DNA of 64,000 nucleotides from IMG/VR virus record IMGVR_UViG_3300021431_000012, positions 11,699 through 75,698 of that record; one strand, given 5' to 3'. Source of the stretch: a virus. Lineage: Duplodnaviria; Caudoviricetes. A program made the translations under genes and the position numbers. Below, piece by piece: positions 4,294 through 58,857 of this stretch (positions are counted from its first letter, which is position 1; the number at the start of each line of letters is the position of its first letter). Under the pieces are notes generated by a model. It made no database searches, was not told the DNA's origin, and saw only the letters and a list, made by a program, of their open reading frames with translations.

Positions 4294-5106
4294 TTAACTG
4301 CACACTTGCCCGTAACTAAATGAATTTTTCAAGCCACGAATGTAGCCAGCTAGTTTTATTTGTAGCTTTCTATCATCACCGCTAAACTCCCAACCGCTAA
4401 ATAGCGACGAGTCAACGTCGTTGTAATCACGCATAAGCTGAAGAATCTTTGCACGATTTTCTTTGTGCGTGTTAATACGCCACCACCCGCGCCATGTGGT
4501 CGGGTCATCATTCTTGCATACGTCGGGAAACACATTGCGAAGCACTTTGATAAAAGCCTGCGTGTCGCGGCTATTCTTCTTGCGCTCGTTTTGTGTTTTT
4601 GCACGCCGTGCTATGATGTCCATTTTCTCTGCTTCGCTTTTTGCTTTCATTGCGGCAACATATTTCTCGTTGCTTGCCCCCAGCTTTTCACCTTTTGCCT
4701 TCAATGCCGATAGTGCTGCGGTCGTGCGTTGTGAACAAAGTTCGCGCTCGTACTGTGCAACACTAGCGAACACACCCAGCAAAAGAGTGTTTATCGTCGG
4801 CATGTCGCAAAAATGAATTTCGATTCCCGTGTTCACCACCTTAAAGCAAAACTCAACATCACGGGCGAGGCGGTCTAGCTTTGCAATAACAAGCGCACAC
4901 GCATTGCTCCTGCAATATTCTATCGCCGCAGCTAACCCTTTTCTATCGCGGTGCGTACCACTTTCCACGTCGCTAAATTCGGCGGCACACACGCCGCCAG
5001 AACGCTTGATAAAGTCCTCGCACATGGCTCTTTGTGCCGCCATACCTAAACCACCAGCGCCCTGCTTGCGTGTAGACACGCGAAGGTATATTGCAAATTT
5101 TTTCAT
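4294..5106 (-). CDS. Serine recombinase, resolvase/invertase family
   Basis: YLRVSTRKQ catalytic Ser motif, DVESG, LVIAKLDRLARD, ASVAQYERELCSQRT..AL...KAKG..LG. Confidence 0.9.
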   Translation of the reverse strand: MKKFAIYLRVSTRKQGAGGLGMAAQRAMCEDFIKRSGGVCAAEFSDVESGTHRDRKGLAAAIEYCRSNACALVIAKLDRLARDVEFCFKVVNTGIEIHFCDMPTINTLLLGVFASVAQYERELCSQRTTAALSALKAKGEKLGASNEKYVAAMKAKSEAEKMDIIARRAKTQNERKKNSRDTQAFIKVLRNVFPDVCKNDDPTTWRGWWRINTHKENRAKILQLMRDYNDVDSSLFSGWEFSGDDRKLQIKLAGYIRGLKNSFSYGQVCS

Positions 5107-5339
5107 AATTCTCCTCCGTAAAAACTTCCGTACAATATCACTTTTGTATCTTTGTGACGAAGCCTGCCGCATTTGTTTATGCGTATATTACTCACTCCAC
5201 AAAGGCTATAGACATCTGCCGCAGCTTCACGAGCATTTTCCAAATTGTCGCACTTGATTGCATAGTGTTTAGTTTGATAGCCCATTAACCTAAAATAGTT
5301 GTTAGGTCTTATCTGAAATGTTACATATATTTTTTTCAT
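5103..5339 (-). CDS. Hypothetical protein
   Basis: ORF track; 4-nt overlap with the resolvase start. Confidence 0.6.
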   Translation of the reverse strand: MKKIYVTFQIRPNNYFRLMGYQTKHYAIKCDNLENAREAAADVYSLCGVSNIRINKCGRLRHKDTKVILYGSFYGGEL

Positions 5340-9498: not shown

Positions 9499-10887
9499 TT
9501 ACTTTATCATGCTAGCAACGGCCTCTGCCCACTCATTCTCTTTGTGTTCGAGTGCGCCGTAAATCATGCGTACTTCGTCAGTGTCCAGACCCTTAAACAA
9601 CCCGCGACGGAGGGCTGCCTGTTTGTTTTCTTTGCGGGCTTCAAGATAACGCGTGGTACGATAGCTTGCCAGCATTGATACCTTCGTTTTATCAATGGCG
9701 CGGCGGACGTCCTCCATGAAGTCCACGAGCTCGGCGTCGTTGTTTGCCATAACGGGTAACTCCACGCGCCTGTCGTATTGCATGCGATAGAACACGAATC
9801 TGTCGCGGCTTGATGCGTCCACGACGTTTGCTGCCGTGTACTCTAAATCTGCGCCAGTCATGGCCGTGTTGCCCGCTGCAATTACGCGGAAGTTAGGGTG
9901 AGCCTTTTTGTTGCCAACGACGGGAAAATCGAAGGAGCCAGTTGCCATGGCGGTATTTAAAACCGTCGTACATTGTACCTCCGTTCTGTCCCACTCGTCC
10001 AAAAATAGAATGCCGCCCTTCGTGAAGGCGTTGTAGAACGGAGTCGGGACAAAGTTACCTGCGGCGTCCCCGTACCCCTTTACCTCGTGCGCAAATTGCA
10101 ACTGCGAACACTCATAAAAGTCGAGCCCGAGGGCGTCGGCTACCTGTCGCGCTGTGTGCGATTTTCCGCAACCTGCCGCGCCGAACATGTAGGGCGCGAA
10201 GCCTTCGTTGACGTCCTGCACAATATCGGCGAAGTCTGAACACGTCACACCTTCGACGTTATGCTCCTGTCCGTCGGCCGTTGTTACAACAACACGCTGG
10301 GCATGTGTTGCGGCCGTTGCTTTTAGCTCATCAATAACGGGCTGCAACTTTGCGAACACGGCAGCAACGACGTTCTTCTCCACACCTGCGAACAACGGCG
10401 TGAGTGCGCTGAACGCGTCCACAACGGCCGACTCTGTGGGCGTTGCGGCGGGCACGGGTGCAGCGTCGGCGGGTGTTGTGTCCGTCGTGGGCTGAACGTC
10501 TGCGGCTGGCTTCGTTGCACGCTTGCCACGACGCGGCTTCCGTGCTGGTTTCTCCTCCGTCGGTTTTTCGTCCGTCGGCACGGGCACAACATCGGGCTGT
10601 GCTGGCGTTGCTTCCGTCGGCGTTGCTTCGCTATCGGGCTCGGGCTTCGTTGCTGGCTTCGACGTGCGCGGCTTCCCTCCGCGGCGCGTCGTTAATTCGT
10701 ACCCGTCCATGATACGGAAGGCCTGACAGCCTTCTTCGTCCGTTGTTAACTCAAGAACGTGCGCCCAGTTTTTGATAAAGCGGGCAGTCATATCTTTGCC
10801 AGTGTTTGACTTCACCAGGCCGTTCTTCACTGTTACGTTTGACACATTGAAAACCTCACTCGTCTGAATGTTCTTTAAAGTAATCAT
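9499..10887 (-). CDS. MoxR/CbbQ/CobS-like AAA+ ATPase with a low-complexity N-terminal linker
   Basis: Walker A GAAGCGKS, Walker B LFLDEWD, HPNFRVIAAGNT, DASSRDRF. Confidence 0.85.
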   Translation of the reverse strand: MITLKNIQTSEVFNVSNVTVKNGLVKSNTGKDMTARFIKNWAHVLELTTDEEGCQAFRIMDGYELTTRRGGKPRTSKPATKPEPDSEATPTEATPAQPDVVPVPTDEKPTEEKPARKPRRGKRATKPAADVQPTTDTTPADAAPVPAATPTESAVVDAFSALTPLFAGVEKNVVAAVFAKLQPVIDELKATAATHAQRVVVTTADGQEHNVEGVTCSDFADIVQDVNEGFAPYMFGAAGCGKSHTARQVADALGLDFYECSQLQFAHEVKGYGDAAGNFVPTPFYNAFTKGGILFLDEWDRTEVQCTTVLNTAMATGSFDFPVVGNKKAHPNFRVIAAGNTAMTGADLEYTAANVVDASSRDRFVFYRMQYDRRVELPVMANNDAELVDFMEDVRRAIDKTKVSMLASYRTTRYLEARKENKQAALRRGLFKGLDTDEVRMIYGALEHKENEWAEAVASMIK

Positions 10888-10948
10888 AATTTTTTATTGT
10901 TTTTAAAGTTAGAAAATGTTGTTATTTATTGATTGTTGTTTTGTTTGT

Positions 10949-11260
10949 TCACCATAGCTCGGAATTTATAACTTCTTCCTGAACTGCGATTGATTCCTGA
11001 TTGAACAGCTTTTTAAGCGTGTCGCAAAGATTTTTAACTTGCATTTTTTCGGCAAATAACAACTCAATGCGCAGCGTTGTTTCGGTTACAATTTGCCCGT
11101 TTTCGTGCTTGTAAATACCTTTTGCCTCAAAAATTGTGCCTCCGTCAAAATCGGCAGAGATTAAGTTACTAACAATTTTGTAGGCTTCTACTGTCGCAAT
11201 TTGTTGCGTTTTTGTATCTTTGTCGTTGAGACCGAGATACAAAGTAAATTTTTTAATCAT
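10949..11260 (-). CDS. DUF3574-like protein
   Basis: LYLGLNDKD...GGTIFEAKGIY...E.TLRIE...LK..FNQESI. Confidence 0.6.
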   Translation of the reverse strand: MIKKFTLYLGLNDKDTKTQQIATVEAYKIVSNLISADFDGGTIFEAKGIYKHENGQIVTETTLRIELLFAEKMQVKNLCDTLKKLFNQESIAVQEEVINSELW

Positions 11261-11377
11261 AATAAAATACGTTTTAAGTTAGAATAAGTTAGAATAAATT
11301 TGCACCATATTCGCGGACTCGCACCGCTTCTGCCCGTCTAAAAATTTACGGGAAAGGGTAGTAAAAACTCCTTCGTT

Positions 11378-11393
11378 TGTTTCACGTGAAACA
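11378..11393. promoter_or_regulatory. parS palindrome 1
   Basis: Exact TGTTTCACGTGAAACA, the canonical chromosomal ParB-binding consensus. Confidence 0.8.
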
Positions 11394-11501
11394 TAAGAGT
11401 TTTAAATTATTTGGTACGTCTGCCCGCGGCCGTCGGCGTGTCGCGCTTTTCGGTTGACTATCGCCCGCCTGGTGAGTGTGCCATGTACGTGCTGAACTTC
11501 G

Positions 11502-11517
11502 TGTTTCACGTGAAACA
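11502..11517. promoter_or_regulatory. parS palindrome 2
   Basis: Exact TGTTTCACGTGAAACA. Confidence 0.8.
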
Positions 11518-11639
11518 AACAAAGAAATTTTCATATAATAAAATAATATGTTTCTTTCGTCGTTTTCCTTTGTGCATTTTGCTACATTCAACACTCTCCA
11601 AAATAACTTTTTTAATCGCTAGAAAATTAAAACGCTTTG

Positions 11640-12195
11640 TTTCGTTTTAGGTTTTTCGTCTTCGCGAAAAAGCTATTTTTCGCGGCTCTATTTTACTAGA
11701 GCCGAATTTTTCGCTCGCGGCATGCACTCGCCGCCGTTGTTTTTATTCGCGTCTATTAAGCACTCTCGCTGCCGTCTGGCTTCGTCCCGCCGTCGGGCTT
11801 CGGGTGATTTTACAACGAATTCCGCGCCATGTTCACCCCGTACTATCAAACGCCAAACCGTTCTCCCGTTTGGGATACCTCCGCCTGCTGCTATGCCTAC
11901 TCTATTACGCTAGTGAGCCTGCTCGGGTCTGCGTCGCGTTGTCTGTGGTCGTTAAATTATCATGTTTTAACCGCCGCCCGTTGGGCGTGCGTTGCGCGTT
12001 GTGTCAATAGGTTACAAAAAGCGGTGAGCCCGTATCAACTCACAAAAACAAATCACTCGCGCCGTGTTCGTTGCCTGGTGTCCTCGTTGCGACGCGTTGC
12101 ACGTCGTTTTAGTCTAAACCCTCGAGGGTGCCTGTCTCGGCGATGCGTCGGGTGTCCCCGTTGCGCTTTGTTGTAACCACTATTTCAAAGAACAC
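11640..12195 (-). ncRNA. Candidate large structured RNA / long leader of the early operon
   Basis: At least 8 stems directly downstream of a consensus promoter, no credible ORF, and G-U pairs that work only on the minus strand. Confidence 0.45.
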
Positions 12196-12199
12196 GATG

Positions 12200-12231
12200 C
12201 AAAGGTACGCATTATTTTTTAATCCACCAAA
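12200..12231 (-). promoter_or_regulatory. Consensus Bacteroidetes promoter driving the leftward early region
   Basis: TTTG (12231-12228), 20-nt spacer, TACCTTTG (12207-12200). Confidence 0.8.
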
Positions 12232-12273
12232 TTTTTTTGCAATTATTTTTTAAATATTTAAAGTACTTTTTTA

Positions 12274-12834
12274 TAACTCGTTGTAAATCAATGAGTTACG
12301 AATATTATTTATAATTAATCTAAATAAGCGTGTTTAGTGCGTAAAATACACGCTATTATTGCCCGTTGTTTGCATGTTCTTTTATATATACATTATTATA
12401 TATAATATATAGATATAATCTATCATGATATAATATTAATTAAATGTATCTTTTACACTATAAAACAAACGTATAACAAAGAAATATAAATAATAAATAT
12501 TATGATAAATAAAACACGTACATGGCAAACGTCCTATTTATCATAATACCTATTTAATCATGCAAAAAGCGGTTTTCACTGTGTGCGCACACAAAACGGC
12601 GATTTTTTCGGGTGTAGATATGTTCCCCACAAAACACCCGAAAACGCAACACGGGCAAAACAACGCGTTTTTCGTTTTTCTTGACACTGATAGAATCAAA
12701 ACGCATAACTAATTGAAAATCAATGAGTTATAATGTGCAAAAATAAAAAGGTACGTTAACTCGTTGACTATCAAGTAGTTACAAAAAATCACGCTTTAAT
12801 AGATGTTTATAACTAATTGAAAATCAATAACTTA
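12274..12834. repeat. Four copies of a 25-bp imperfect palindrome, consensus TAACT-N2-TTG-N4-TCAA-N2-AGTTA
   Basis: Copies at 12274-12298, 12706-12730, 12757-12781 and 12810-12834 (the last ends AACTTA). Confidence 0.8.
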
Positions 12835-12874
12835 AACCCAAATTTATGAAATGTAAATGTTTTTCATATAGCAT

Positions 12875-13090
12875 TATTTAGTGTATATATTACAATATAT
12901 TATAGTAATATTATAGTAATAATATAGAAATACTATTATAGTACTTTTATAGTATATCACAACATATTACTACAGTATATTATATAGTATTACGATAGTA
13001 AATAACAATCAAATAATAATATTATAATATTATAATCATGATAAAATAATAATAATATAATAGTAATAATATTATATATAATATATAGTG
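12875..13090. other. Extremely AT-rich low-complexity tract (candidate unwinding element)
   Basis: About 215 nt dominated by TAT/ATA/TAATA with almost no GC-rich stretch. Confidence 0.45.
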
Positions 13091-13124
13091 CCTTTACTAC
13101 TTTTTGCGAGTTTTGTGTTGTCAT

Positions 13125-13140
13125 TGTTTCACGTGAAACA
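13125..13140. promoter_or_regulatory. parS palindrome 3
   Basis: Exact TGTTTCACGTGAAACA. Confidence 0.8.
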
Positions 13141-13512
13141 TTTGTCGATTTTTTGCCCGTCCGCTTTCGTGCGTTGTGTGTTTTCCCGTTGTTGTTTTTG
13201 TTATATGTTCGTTTGTCAAAATCAAAACCGCGTATTTTGGCCGCGTGTCGGCGTTGTTGGCGGGCGTTGTGTGTGTGGACGCTCGCGACGTTTTAACGCA
13301 ACACGCGCAAAGAAAACGCCCAAATTTGCGACGTTTTGCCGTGCGGCAGAATCGCGTGAGGAGGTGTCGCTTTTTCGTGCGCTTTATTCAAGAAGGGGGG
13401 GCGGGGGTACGCGCCGCCGCAATGATGTGGTGCAAATCGTCCAATTTTTTCTGAAAAAATTTTTTTGAAAAATTTACGAATTACAAAAATATATTAAATT
13501 TCTAGTAATAAT

Positions 13513-13544
13513 ATTGCAATTGCTTATTAAATTTATTATATTTG
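13513..13544 (+). promoter_or_regulatory. Bacteroidetes promoter for 13599-14409
   Basis: ATTG, 20-nt spacer, TATATTTG (13537-13544). Confidence 0.6.
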
Positions 13545-13598
13545 CAAGCTAGTATTTCTTTACTATGCTAGTATAGTGTTAATATATATAGATAATAG

Positions 13599-14054
13599 AT
13601 GGCTGATTTTCAAGTTACAGGTCATATAAGTCGCATTCGTAGGAAGAACGGTGTTATTTGTGTGTACGTTGATGAGTACATGCGTGGTTTTCGTCGTTCT
13701 GATGGTGAGGTTGTTCAAGAGAAGCATTTGACGTGGTGTTGTGTGTTTAAGAATGCGTTTAGTAATTTTTTGGATAGGATTGGTATTGGTAGTTTAGTGA
13801 CGATAAAGGGCGAGATACTACCTTATGGTCGTAGTATAGATGAAAAGGTTGAAGGATATACGTTATTTGGTCAAGTGATAAATGTTGCTTCTTATCCGAA
13901 ATTTCTTCGTGTTGAGGAAAAGATGGTTCGTGATTCGTCAAAGGTTGTGGATGTGCAATCGTCTGATTCTGTTGTTAGTGATGAGGGTAGTGATAGTGTT
14001 AGTCGCAATATTGTTGTTCCTGACATATATGGGTTTAATGAGCCAGATTTTTAG
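13599..14054 (+). CDS. SSB-like OB-fold protein
   Basis: FQVTGHISRI...TW.CVF...IGSLVTIKGEI; acidic/aromatic C-terminus EPDF. Confidence 0.55.
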   Translation: MADFQVTGHISRIRRKNGVICVYVDEYMRGFRRSDGEVVQEKHLTWCCVFKNAFSNFLDRIGIGSLVTIKGEILPYGRSIDEKVEGYTLFGQVINVASYPKFLRVEEKMVRDSSKVVDVQSSDSVVSDEGSDSVSRNIVVPDIYGFNEPDF

Positions 14055-14085
14055 TATTTAATTTAAATAGTGATTACTTTGTGTT

Positions 14086-14409
14086 ATGGTAAAATTAGTT
14101 GATAGCGAATTGGATATTGTTCCCGTTGTGGGGTCTAACAATGATTTATCCAAAGAATTAACGAAGTTGCGTCGTTCAAATACTGCGTTACGCAATGTGA
14201 ACAAGGAGCGTGGCAATCGCATTAGTCTTTTGGAGTCAAAGATTGCCGAGTTGCATGATGAAAAGCGTGCAACGGAGTCATACATTGACACGCTTGTTGA
14301 TAGGGCGAAGCATTTTGAGGAGTTGTACGAAAATGTTCTTTGTGAGCTTGAGGATGAGCGTAGTAAGACGTTATGGGCGCGTTTTCGTGAGCGTTTTCTT
14401 CCGTACTAG
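14086..14409 (+). CDS. Hypothetical coiled-coil protein
   Basis: ORF track; heptad-rich. Confidence 0.65.
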   Translation: MVKLVDSELDIVPVVGSNNDLSKELTKLRRSNTALRNVNKERGNRISLLESKIAELHDEKRATESYIDTLVDRAKHFEELYENVLCELEDERSKTLWARFRERFLPY

Positions 14410-55557: not shown

Positions 55558-57654
55558 TCAAAATGGTGCTTCATCAAGCGTAGGAGCATCAAATGGCATA
55601 CCACTTGTTTTTGGCGGTTCATCTTTAATAAACGGCATAGTGCTTTGTTCAACTTTTTGTTCCCACCCATAACGCACTTCCTCGTCCATTGTGTTTTTGA
55701 ATCGTCTACTTTCGATTTCATAATGAAAACCGACAAGATAATCAACAACGCCATACATTCTATTTTTGGCAACCTCTAGAACATTTCCAAAACCTTGGAA
55801 CTTTTGAATTTCGCCATTACCAAAGAATTCTGCGCCTGAACGGAAAAAGTCTTGATTCACACGATGAATGATAAACACATTATCAACGGCATTCGTCAAA
55901 TCACTACTACCGCTAATATCTGTCTTTCGTAGGAATGTTGTAACCTTTCTTGGGTGTGCAACAAGAATGATGTGAACTTGATTTTTCTTCGCAAAGTCTT
56001 TTACTTGAAGAATTAGTTCGCGCTGCTTATTGTTTTTATCACCTTCCAATAGGTCAATATTCAAGCTAAACAAGTTATCAAGAATAAACACTTTTACGCC
56101 ACCTTTCAACAACTCCGTCATATCATGGAATATTTGTTCCCATGTGTTGCCATATTCGTTGTTGTAAAGAAAGAACTTTCCGTTCATCCATTCGTCAATC
56201 TTTTCGGCAATGTTGTTTGGAACAAAATACTTTCCATCGCCATATTGTGACGGCTTTAACCATCTTTTCCCTGCCGCTACCATCTGAATCCATGCCTTTA
56301 GGATGTCTGGGCGTAATTCGCCAGACCACAATGCAACCTTAAAGTCTTTTTGGATAATGTTAAGTATCAAAGTATTTAACCACGATGATTTACCGCTAGA
56401 ATTGCTACCACTAAGGATTGTGACCTCCGACATGTTCAAACCGACAATCTCTTTATCCAAGCCAAAGAAACCAGTTTTTACATTTTCAATCTGCGTGATG
56501 TCTATTTTCTTTATGTCACTCATCGAAAGCCACTTTTCGCCAAGTTCTGGCAATTCATCCTTGATTTCATACTTTGGCTTTTGTTGTGGCATGTATTGGC
56601 GTGGTTGATAATACGCTTGTGGTTGCCATTGCGGTTTAGAATACGCATCTGGTTCGTAGAACACACGAAAGTCATGCCACGTCTTATCCTTGCAATGTGA
56701 ATGCTGGCAATTAAACGTGATTTTACCTTCCGTGTCCAAGAATAATGCGCTATCCCATTTCTTGTGGTCTGAATGTGTATCTACCCATGGGCAATATTCA
56801 AGTGTAAACCTAGTGCTTGCGCCTTGCTTTTCCTCCTTGTAGACAATGCCGTGATTATTTAACCATGACCGTAAATCAAAAGGCATTGCGCTTTGCCGAT
56901 ATGGGTTTCGCACGATAGTTGCGGTCTTAGGTTCTTCTTTGGGCAACAAGTCTGAAAGTTCCTTGAACTTTTCTATCGGTGTAGCCTTAATTTCCTTTGG
57001 TACATAGATAATCGTTGACTCACGCCATGGTCTATCTTGTAAGTTTGCTCCTTTCTTTGCAATCGTACCATACAGCTTGCATAGACGTGCCAAATTAAAA
57101 TTCTTTTGGTCAAATTCAACTTTTTCATCTGAAAACTTTTCGCCCATGAACTTAAAGAAACCACGAATGATTTCTGTAGTTTCTTCATCATTTGGCAAGT
57201 CCACATGATAGTCTAGATGAATACCATTACCACTTTTGCATATCACTGGTTCGCTAAATCCGTGGTCGCGCAAAAACCTAAACACGTCTTGCGCTTTCTT
57301 GTATGCAAAGTTAAATTCTTCGTCACTAGCATTAACGCCCGACTTGCGAACTGGGTCAAAATCACACATTACCCACAAACGCCGTGTAATGTCGTTGTCG
57401 TTCGTTGTAATCTTTGGCGATTTGACAAACTTTTCGCTTTGCTGCCTACCATAACATGCGTCATCAATCCTATTTAGTACAAAATAAATTTGTTCGTCAT
57501 CCATATTACCATATGGTTCGATTTGTGCTAATAGGTTGTCAACGGATTTAAAGTAGCCGCTATATTGGTAGCGACCAAGTATGCGGACTTCGGTAAAATT
57601 ACCATCGCCCACAAACACCTCCCACCACCGCCTTATTGTATCTTTATTTATCAT
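55558..57654 (-). CDS. Primase-helicase (AEP-like N-terminus, SF4 DnaB/Twinkle-like C-terminus)
   Basis: DFD...SGNG.H primase motifs, Cys/His Zn module, Walker A SGSNSSGKS, LDNL, ILVAHPRK, EVAKNR. Confidence 0.9.
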   Translation of the reverse strand: MINKDTIRRWWEVFVGDGNFTEVRILGRYQYSGYFKSVDNLLAQIEPYGNMDDEQIYFVLNRIDDACYGRQQSEKFVKSPKITTNDNDITRRLWVMCDFDPVRKSGVNASDEEFNFAYKKAQDVFRFLRDHGFSEPVICKSGNGIHLDYHVDLPNDEETTEIIRGFFKFMGEKFSDEKVEFDQKNFNLARLCKLYGTIAKKGANLQDRPWRESTIIYVPKEIKATPIEKFKELSDLLPKEEPKTATIVRNPYRQSAMPFDLRSWLNNHGIVYKEEKQGASTRFTLEYCPWVDTHSDHKKWDSALFLDTEGKITFNCQHSHCKDKTWHDFRVFYEPDAYSKPQWQPQAYYQPRQYMPQQKPKYEIKDELPELGEKWLSMSDIKKIDITQIENVKTGFFGLDKEIVGLNMSEVTILSGSNSSGKSSWLNTLILNIIQKDFKVALWSGELRPDILKAWIQMVAAGKRWLKPSQYGDGKYFVPNNIAEKIDEWMNGKFFLYNNEYGNTWEQIFHDMTELLKGGVKVFILDNLFSLNIDLLEGDKNNKQRELILQVKDFAKKNQVHIILVAHPRKVTTFLRKTDISGSSDLTNAVDNVFIIHRVNQDFFRSGAEFFGNGEIQKFQGFGNVLEVAKNRMYGVVDYLVGFHYEIESRRFKNTMDEEVRYGWEQKVEQSTMPFIKDEPPKTSGMPFDAPTLDEAPF

Positions 57655-58730
57655 TTTTTAATCCACTTTCTTTCTTGTTTGCACCATGTTACAACACCCC
57701 TGCCATTGTTTAGTGTTACTTGCGCACCATCTGGACGTTCTTCATCAGAATACCCATCTGGAATGTGACCATCCCAATATCCTGTAAACATAAAGCATTT
57801 GTAATAATCGTTCCACCATAGACTACCACCGCATTCTGGTGAATACGGCGCATCCTTACCTAACATTATTGTCGAAAATGCTTGTGGATTTTCTAGATGC
57901 ACTTTTCCTTCCAACGCTTTAGTAAGCCATCCATTTGTATTAGCGAGCCACCAATCAAAATCTGGTTTCCAATTAGCATGTTGTTTGTTTGGATTGTAAA
58001 GCCACTTGTCTGCAAATGGCAATGTTTTGAAAAACTGTATTAGTTGTTCTTGCGTAATATCATTGTCATCTAAAGCTCTTTTAATTGCTCTTTTGCGTTT
58101 GTCGGTTATTTTTGTTACTTTACCAAGTTTCTTTCCATTATGTTCGTTCCAACAATCAACTATTTCTTGAAAATCATTTTTCTTTAAAGGTATGTTAATA
58201 CCTTTTTCTTTATTATTGTTAATAGTAGATGAGTTGTTATTATCTATATTATTATTATTATTATTTATATTGCACTTGTATTCAGCTACTTTTGCACTTG
58301 TATCTAAATACTTGTGCGAATGATTTTCCATACTTATGATAGAATATTCATTGTTATAAACTATATCTTCGTAGGCTTTTCCTATACGAAAAGCCGTATA
58401 ACTACCAGATTGGTTTTTTACAATTGCTTTTTCCAATAAGCCAAAATCACATAATTTCTTTAGTCTATCGCTTAATGCTTGTTGTTTTATGTTTAGTATT
58501 GGTAGGTCGTTAATGATAACTTGATACTTAATGCTAAAGAATGTTTTTTCGTCTATCACATACTTTATGATGTTGCGCCTATTCATAAAGTCGGCGACGT
58601 CTTGCAATATGAGAAGGTCTACAACATCAATTCTTTTTATAACTTTTGTTTTACCAAAAATTTCATCTACAATTGTTTCTTGTAGCTCCAATACTTTTTC
58701 TTGGTTAAATCCCAAAATTGAATATTTCAT
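57651..58730 (-). CDS. Phage replication initiator (N-terminal wHTH, Asn-rich linker, C-terminal helical domain)
   Basis: Start MKYSILGFNQ; I...WNE...KVTKITDKRKRAIKR...WKPDFDW pattern; coupled to the helicase gene. Confidence 0.7.
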   Translation of the reverse strand: MKYSILGFNQEKVLELQETIVDEIFGKTKVIKRIDVVDLLILQDVADFMNRRNIIKYVIDEKTFFSIKYQVIINDLPILNIKQQALSDRLKKLCDFGLLEKAIVKNQSGSYTAFRIGKAYEDIVYNNEYSIISMENHSHKYLDTSAKVAEYKCNINNNNNNIDNNNSSTINNNKEKGINIPLKKNDFQEIVDCWNEHNGKKLGKVTKITDKRKRAIKRALDDNDITQEQLIQFFKTLPFADKWLYNPNKQHANWKPDFDWWLANTNGWLTKALEGKVHLENPQAFSTIMLGKDAPYSPECGGSLWWNDYYKCFMFTGYWDGHIPDGYSDEERPDGAQVTLNNGRGVVTWCKQERKWIKK

Positions 58731-58733
58731 ATT

Positions 58734-58857
58734 ATGACCGTTTAAAAACCTAACGGGCAATGCTACTTGTTGCGGTCATTCAACTTTCACATTGCCCGTA
58801 TCGGCAAAATTAGTATATACTTATATTTTTATCTTTTGCGCCTATATGACCGACAAC
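58734..58857 (-). promoter_or_regulatory. Structured leader with three mutually complementary ATGACCG/CGGTCAT boxes
   Basis: Boxes at 58734-58740, 58773-58779 and 58846-58852; 10-bp stem 58753-58762/58790-58799. Confidence 0.7.

Follow-up and report, generated by a model that had tools for sequence, protein, structure and literature searches.

A tailed phage whose likely host is a gut or rumen member of the Bacteroidales carries three perfect copies of the bacterial chromosomal centromere site parS in one intergenic region, and we found no partition protein encoded in its genome. Because the sites are identical to the universal parS, because no ParB is encoded by the phage, because the position of the sites is conserved among relatives, and because the variants in those relatives match variants of the host, it is very likely that the phage recruits the ParB protein of its host.

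parS sites and gene content of the phage

The window analyzed here is a stretch of 64,000 nucleotides, corresponding to bases 11699-75698 of a complete 75,698-bp phage genome (G000) that has a 127-bp direct terminal repeat. A sequence search identified exactly three copies of TGTTTCACGTGAAACA, at window positions 11378-11393 (parS-1), 11502-11517 (parS-2) and 13125-13140 (parS-3), confirming the count and positions given in the first-pass annotation of this DNA, which had placed all three in one large non-coding region. Each copy is a perfect 16-bp palindrome that agrees with the parS consensus at all 16 positions; the consensus is the version used in PMC10197239, which cites Livny 2007 for it. 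The first-pass annotation had also judged three copies to be far beyond chance, and in line with this none of 100 dinucleotide-preserving shuffles contained an exact match. Allowing up to 3 mismatches, we found no sites besides these three in the complete genome. Judged by sequence, the palindromes are canonical chromosomal-type parS sites, as originally proposed: the consensus is matched, and the putative host family has the same sequence and its variants (see below).

All three sites fall within a 2.3-kb gap (11261-13598) separating two divergent gene blocks. This early intergenic control region consists of an AT-rich, repeat-rich core flanked by GC-rich leaders. parS-1 and parS-2 are located 118 nt and 242 nt, respectively, upstream of the first gene of a leftward early operon (10949-11260, minus strand), which encodes a 103 aa DUF3574/SAM-lyase-like protein. 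parS-3 flanks the AT-rich core on the right, and the first rightward gene (13599-14054, plus strand) begins 459 nt downstream of it; the 151 aa product of this gene has no family. Because this gene is conserved in relatives regardless of whether they have parS, it is not a parS-specific partner. The larger ORFs within the gap (11829-12176 and 13088-13468) had no Pfam match, and comparison with a 97%-identical relative fragment showed 62-69% conservation of ORF 13088-13468 versus 96-98% for the flanking genes, as expected for non-coding DNA. Stop-codon recoding was considered as a cause of the ORF-poor stretches and was not supported. Searched at the nucleotide level against GenBank phages, the region had no match.

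Bacteroidales -7 boxes (TAnnTTTG) are dense across the intergenic region. One of these, TACCTTTG (12200-12207, minus strand; a motif match only), has a TTTG approximately 21 nt upstream and is kept in the relative G001; the promoter block conserved between G000 and G001 reads CACGnTGCAAAGGTAC. We presume that this box is the leftward early promoter, in which case its leader would hold parS-2 and parS-1. A second box, TATATTTG (13537-13544, plus strand; motif only), is the presumed promoter of the rightward genes at 13599-14409. Four copies of an imperfect palindrome, TAACTnnTTGAAAATCAATnAGTTA, adjoin minus-strand -7 boxes between 12270 and 12834; they may be operators or iterons recognized by a phage protein. 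They are followed by an AT-rich array with an 11-bp period (12887-13083), one block of which is kept in G001.

Other elements of the region were noted in passing. The AT-rich core contains a second GC-containing palindrome, TGTGTGCGCACACA (12580-12593), and a similar palindrome is present in two copies in the relative G004, TGTGTGCGTACACA and TGTGTTCGCACACA (L219 88-102 and 183-197). A short way upstream of the rightward promoter is a conserved G-run, GGGGGGGGCGGGGG, followed by a T/A-run palindrome beginning TTTTTTGAAAAA (13393-13475), an arrangement in common with G001 (L022 8148-8230). On the plus strand, three overlapping terminator-like hairpins with T-tails fall at 11662-11734, inside the GC-rich leader; terminator-like sites in 10900-13700 number 10, versus 3.5 in shuffles.

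The genome encodes a large terminase, a DnaB-like primase-helicase, an O-like initiator and a sliding clamp, and additionally ArdA, a MoxR-like AAA ATPase, DUF7192, a small serine recombinase, RecT, a DNA methylase and a PAPS-reductase-domain protein; many of the phage ORFs are without a family. The MoxR-like (AAA_5) ATPase gene (9499-10887, minus strand) is a syntenic anchor beside the parS cluster in G001 and G004. The serine recombinase, of the resolvase/invertase type (4294-5172, minus strand), is present also in relatives without parS and is possibly a multimer resolvase. Together with the O-like initiator, the DnaB-like helicase and the clamp, this resolvase makes up a set of plasmid-like accessories. 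We did not find an integrase-type recombinase in the genome, and no repressor or addiction module was recognized. The PAPS-reductase-domain protein adjoins an N6/N4 DNA methylase outside the window (L245 2875-4659, in genome bases). Elsewhere, phage PAPS reductases pair with ParB-like (IbrB-type) proteins; in this phage, no ParB-like domain exists in the genome to accompany it.

The first-pass annotation had reported no ParA or ParB gene in the window and had proposed searching the full genome for parB. We found that the absence extends to the whole genome: six-frame searches retrieved neither ParB_N (PF02195) nor HTH_ParB (PF17762), and the ParA-type domains AAA_31 (PF13614) and CbiA (PF01656) gave nothing at E<=1. 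ParB_N and HTH_ParB were likewise missing from all six frames of the parS-bearing relatives G001 and G004. As a positive control, the same domain searches do find matches in control bacteria. With its own ParB and its own ParA both absent, the phage is by its gene content not a self-encoded parABS type such as P1 or N15.

Occurrence of parS in related phages and on host chromosomes

Searching IMG/VR for exact matches to the 16-mer identified G001, a 76,969-bp contig that is a syntenic relative of the phage (tblastn identities of 81% for MCP, 74% for TerL, 38% for the AAA ATPase and 65% for the recombinase). An MCP profile recovered 80 relatives, and the parS search covered 43 records, among which only G004 added further good sites. 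Proteins of G001 and G004 are 30-80% identical to those of G000. The corresponding intergenic region of G001 is 2.2 kb long, adjoins the AAA-ATPase operon, and holds every parS of this contig: one exact site plus two abutting copies with one mismatch (TGTTTCACGTGGAACA). G004 has two sites (A/CGTTTCACGTGAAACA) with a perfect 14-bp core, at 603 and 718, placing them 228 nt and 113 nt upstream of the AAA-ATPase gene; the G000 counterparts are 242 nt and 118 nt from the first ORF. When the intergenic regions of G000 and G001 were compared by short words, parS scored highest among the conserved elements; outside it, only the promoter block and a few AT-rich repeats had escaped divergence. Standing out against diverged flanks, and syntenic in both G001 and G004, the parS sites on these phages appear to have been kept by selection.

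Counting parS in related phages, another check proposed at the outset, gave two to three sites at the same spot in G001 and G004, and none in 13 of the 16 relatives with near-complete genomes. parS is also missing from Bacteroides phage C3_41T2LP, the cultured phage nearest to this one, and these absences indicate that parS is dispensable for the lineage. One further relative (G006) has a single 2-mismatch site in the equivalent region. A 2-mismatch site in another (G007) was set aside, as it is far from the syntenic region and within chance (approximately 0.7 such matches are expected in the 2.5 Mb searched). In an MCP tree the parS-positive phages are not monophyletic, and the tree gives no support for a single gain of parS in one clade. 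On this sampling the parS trait is accessory and patchy; where present, it occupies one place and has the exact sequence.

We compared six genomes for genes that co-occur with parS, and the only one was a RusA-like resolvase. The initiator/helicase module was rejected as a partner, as many relatives that have no parS carry it too. This module is directly to the right of the parS-bearing region in G001 (L130 12492-14986) and on the opposite side of the circular map in G000 (window 55558-58760), and the differing positions indicate that the replication module moved relative to the control region. No substitute palindrome was found in relatives without parS. Scanning for close relatives with the AAA ATPase retrieved nothing, and scanning with the 151 aa protein retrieved only a 4.3-kb fragment that ends before parS-3.

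The host is likely a member of the Bacteroidales on the basis of a cultured relative, the promoter motifs and MAG binning. The closest cultured relative, C3_41T2LP (TerL 54% identical), was isolated on B. uniformis, and a contig of a related phage was binned in a rumen Prevotellaceae MAG. Related phage was found in only two MAG contigs, and no isolate genome carrying the phage as an episome was found. We treated the family of the Prevotellaceae MAG as the putative host family. Within it, 46 of 61 genomes have parS with <=1 mismatch, compared with 4 of 61 for a reversed control, and sites number one or two per genome and never more than two across the 61. TGTTCCACGTGAAACA and NGTTTCACGTGAAACN, the variants that occur most often, are also those of G001 and G004. 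Two complete genomes were checked for the location of the site: in both it is flanked by gidA (mnmG) and apt, with uvrC adjacent, at a distance of 0.27-0.63 Mb from parAB. In the MAG it is just upstream of uvrC (host-family loci L241, L243 and L235). The TGTTTCACGTGAAACA-type site is thus predicted to be the centromere of the chromosome in the putative host family, and by the counts above the phage would carry more and better centromeres than that chromosome does.

A suitable ParB is encoded in this family. ParB_N proteins of approximately 300 aa were present in all five of the genomes checked, and the one MAG examined (G046) has a parA-parB operon. The ParB of this MAG contains ParB_N, HTH_ParB and ParB_C, has Caulobacter ParB as its best match (6t1f, E 1e-53), and keeps the equivalents of R173 and G201, residues that are invariant in parS-specific ParBs and define parS specificity (Jalal et al., PMC7383237). 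Phage and host parS loci have no similarity beyond the 16-mer, and there are no phage genes in the host loci. A recent capture of host DNA is excluded, as nothing is similar outside the 16-mer.

Possible roles of the phage parS sites

Virulent-looking Bacteroidales phages persist with their hosts for years, and this persistence is unexplained. Proposals to account for it include carrier states and even life as a phage-plasmid (PMC10983915, a crAssphage preprint); the preprint reports no partition mechanism and does not mention parS or ParB. Host-type parS sites without a cognate phage gene would supply partition without any phage protein. Our preferred reading, which we hold tentatively and put a little short of an even proposition, is that the sites are genuine host-ParB loading sites that position or partition the unintegrated phage genome; we infer both the binding of ParB and the partition role. 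Under this model, a phage without a partition protein would keep three host-ParB loading sites by selection. After infection, ParB-CTP clamps of the host would nucleate at the sites bracketing the early control region. The ParA of the host would subsequently move the unintegrated genome along with the nucleoid as the latter divides, thereby positioning or partitioning it. In this way, a phage that looks lytic could pass to daughter cells while in a delayed or carrier state.

We rank partition first because of the unexplained persistence and the preprint's silence on parS and ParB, because of the plasmid-like replication and resolvase of the phage, and because positioning or partition is what parS has been demonstrated to do on phi29 (PMC2731898) and SGI1 (PMC10954446). 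Counting against partition, parS is absent from most relatives, its carriers are not monophyletic, no repressor or addiction module was recognized, and no isolate genome had the phage as an episome; the sites are moreover in a presumed transcribed leader and at no demonstrated origin, a placement that fits regulation equally well. The first-pass annotation had suggested that the phage borrows the host ParABS and SMC. The ParABS part stands as the best reading, given the lack of phage ParB and ParA, the conserved positions, and the presence of both parS and a canonical ParB in the host family. The SMC part fared worse: two Bacteroidetes studied by Hi-C have ParABS, with no known condensin homologue reported (PMC10197239), and SMC loading via the phage parS is doubtful. 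A more far-reaching version of the partition model, in which a lytic-looking Bacteroidales phage lives as an unintegrated episome on host ParABS with its three perfect centromeres outcompeting the one or two of the host, is possible, though we lean against it. If true, it would explain in concrete molecular terms how Bacteroidales phages of the gut and rumen persist in a carrier or pseudolysogenic state, which has long been debated. The location of parS in the leader of the early operon could also couple the choice between a silent, partitioned state and a transcribed, lytic one.

The sites may instead act at the expense of the host. Three perfect sites per genome, amplified by replication, could outcompete the one or two often imperfect chromosomal sites and strip ParB from the single host centromere, resulting in takeover or incompatibility; host segregation and ParA/ParB-linked cell-cycle control would be disturbed, from which the phage would profit, much as the SGI1 mimics destabilize IncC plasmids. 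The numbers suit such a sink, with one or two sites, many of them with one mismatch, in host-family genomes against three perfect sites on the phage, and SGI1 offers a precedent for dose-dependent incompatibility (PMC10954446). The phage also looks lytic: its genome yielded neither a repressor nor an integrase-type recombinase, and plaques were the source of the cultured relative. However, the trait is absent from most relatives, it is hard to see a gain from disturbed segregation within one lytic cycle, and titration of ParB is expected also as a by-product of partition. We consider a dedicated ParB sink a live rival but an unlikely one. Somewhat less likely again is that loaded ParB blocks early transcription and ties phage development to the ParB/CTP status of the host. 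Spo0A boxes in phi29, and KorB and ParB near their sites, are analogues of such silencing. The parS pair is indeed downstream of a -7 box and close upstream of the first ORF in both G000 (118/242 nt) and G004 (113/228 nt), the exact parS of G001 is wedged between two divergent -7 boxes, the nearer of which is at a distance of 1 nt, and the G000 sites bracket the promoter-rich core. Also in favor of silencing, ParB-dependent repression beside parS is reported for P. aeruginosa (10.1101/151340). Against it, the silencing exerted by chromosomal ParB is usually weak, the promoters are known only as motif matches, and the placement of parS relative to the -7 boxes differs among the three phages.

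The remaining explanations do not involve host ParB. The palindromes could be operators of an unrecognized phage DNA-binding protein, for which the many ORFs without a family leave room, or they could form an RNA or DNA hairpin, their identity with parS being coincidental. Extended outward by 14 nt, parS-1 and parS-2 make up a 30-nt inverted repeat (90%, 108 nt apart; 11364-11531), and the minus-strand RNA of this repeat is predicted to fold into a helix of approximately 32 bp (z = -3.16). However, the extended inverted repeat is not kept in G001 or G004, a terminator scan did not call parS, and an Rfam search returned nothing meaningful. An operator would in addition have to match the universal parS at all 16 positions and vary among relatives just as the host chromosomes do, with RusA resolvase as the only co-occurring gene and no substitute palindrome where parS is missing. 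We regard this explanation as improbable. An artefact, either misassembled host DNA or chance occurrence, has to be raised a priori for metagenomic assemblies, and we give it almost no weight. The shuffles contained no exact match, the sites recur at the syntenic position in three assemblies made independently from different samples, the host loci resemble those of the phage only in the 16-mer and have no phage genes, and the genome is closed by terminal repeats. Misassembly, which the first-pass annotation had named as one way in which its proposal could fail, is effectively refuted by the three assemblies and the lack of similarity beyond the 16-mer; a phage-encoded ParB, which it had named as another, was not found in G000, G001 or G004.

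Wider occurrence and comparison with known systems

Orphan parS sites are not confined to this group of phages. We identified 17 IMG/VR viral contigs with 2-5 exact parS, all without ParB_N. Several of these are complete 15-18-kb genomes, two of which have inverted terminal repeats, giving them a phi29-like look; the set includes L009, L016, L023, L024, L063, L067, L073 and L075. A further search identified 32 viral contigs with parS pairs at a similar spacing, of which only G004 is related to G000. These counts suggest that orphan parS is recurrent in phages, and that parS piracy may be a phage strategy well beyond phi29. Because no phage protein would be needed, gene-based predictors of lifestyle are blind to such a mechanism. 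In Bacteroidaceae and Prevotellaceae, where the data suggest that chromosomes have only one or two parS, a phage with three would be a serious competitor for ParB. The first-pass annotation knew of no description of this for a Bacteroidales phage, and our literature search likewise found no paper describing host-type parS on one.

The principle itself is already known from phi29 with Spo0J and from SGI1 with IncC; what is new is the non-sporulating Bacteroidales host, with a pay-off that is necessarily different. Bacteroidales are not spore formers, so that use in the forespore cannot apply and the functional outcome must differ from that in phi29. According to PMC2731898, which draws on Meijer et al. 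2005, phi29 has five host-type parS used through the host Spo0J. The likeness to phi29 and Nf, both virulent Bacillus phages, is in the combination of several host-type parS with no parB, and in phi29 the host Spo0J/ParB moves the phage genome with the chromosome, with the sites serving forespore entrapment. The phages themselves also differ, phi29 being a 19-kb protein-primed podovirus and G000 a 76-kb tailed phage. Unlike those of phi29, the sites in G000 are perfect, they group around the early control region, and they are more numerous than the one or two of the host.

In SGI1, parS mimics hijack the ParABS of IncC plasmids (PMC10954446). As proposed for our phage, orphan centromeres on a mobile element use the ParAB of another replicon to keep the element stable and also compete with that replicon. 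However, SGI1 is an integrative mobilizable element, it mimics a plasmid system rather than a chromosomal one, and it adds a helper protein, Sci. The parABS systems of P1, N15 and actinobacteriophages are similar in that centromere sites on a phage serve extrachromosomal inheritance; those phages have their own ParA and ParB and private centromeres, whereas G000 lacks both proteins and has the universal chromosomal site. A further counterpart is the chromosomal parS of Bacteroidaceae and Prevotellaceae at gidA-apt-uvrC, which has the identical 16-mer or the same one-mismatch variants and is presumably bound by the same ParB. The chromosomal sites occur in one or two copies in a conserved housekeeping context, whereas the phage has three in an otherwise unrelated regulatory region.
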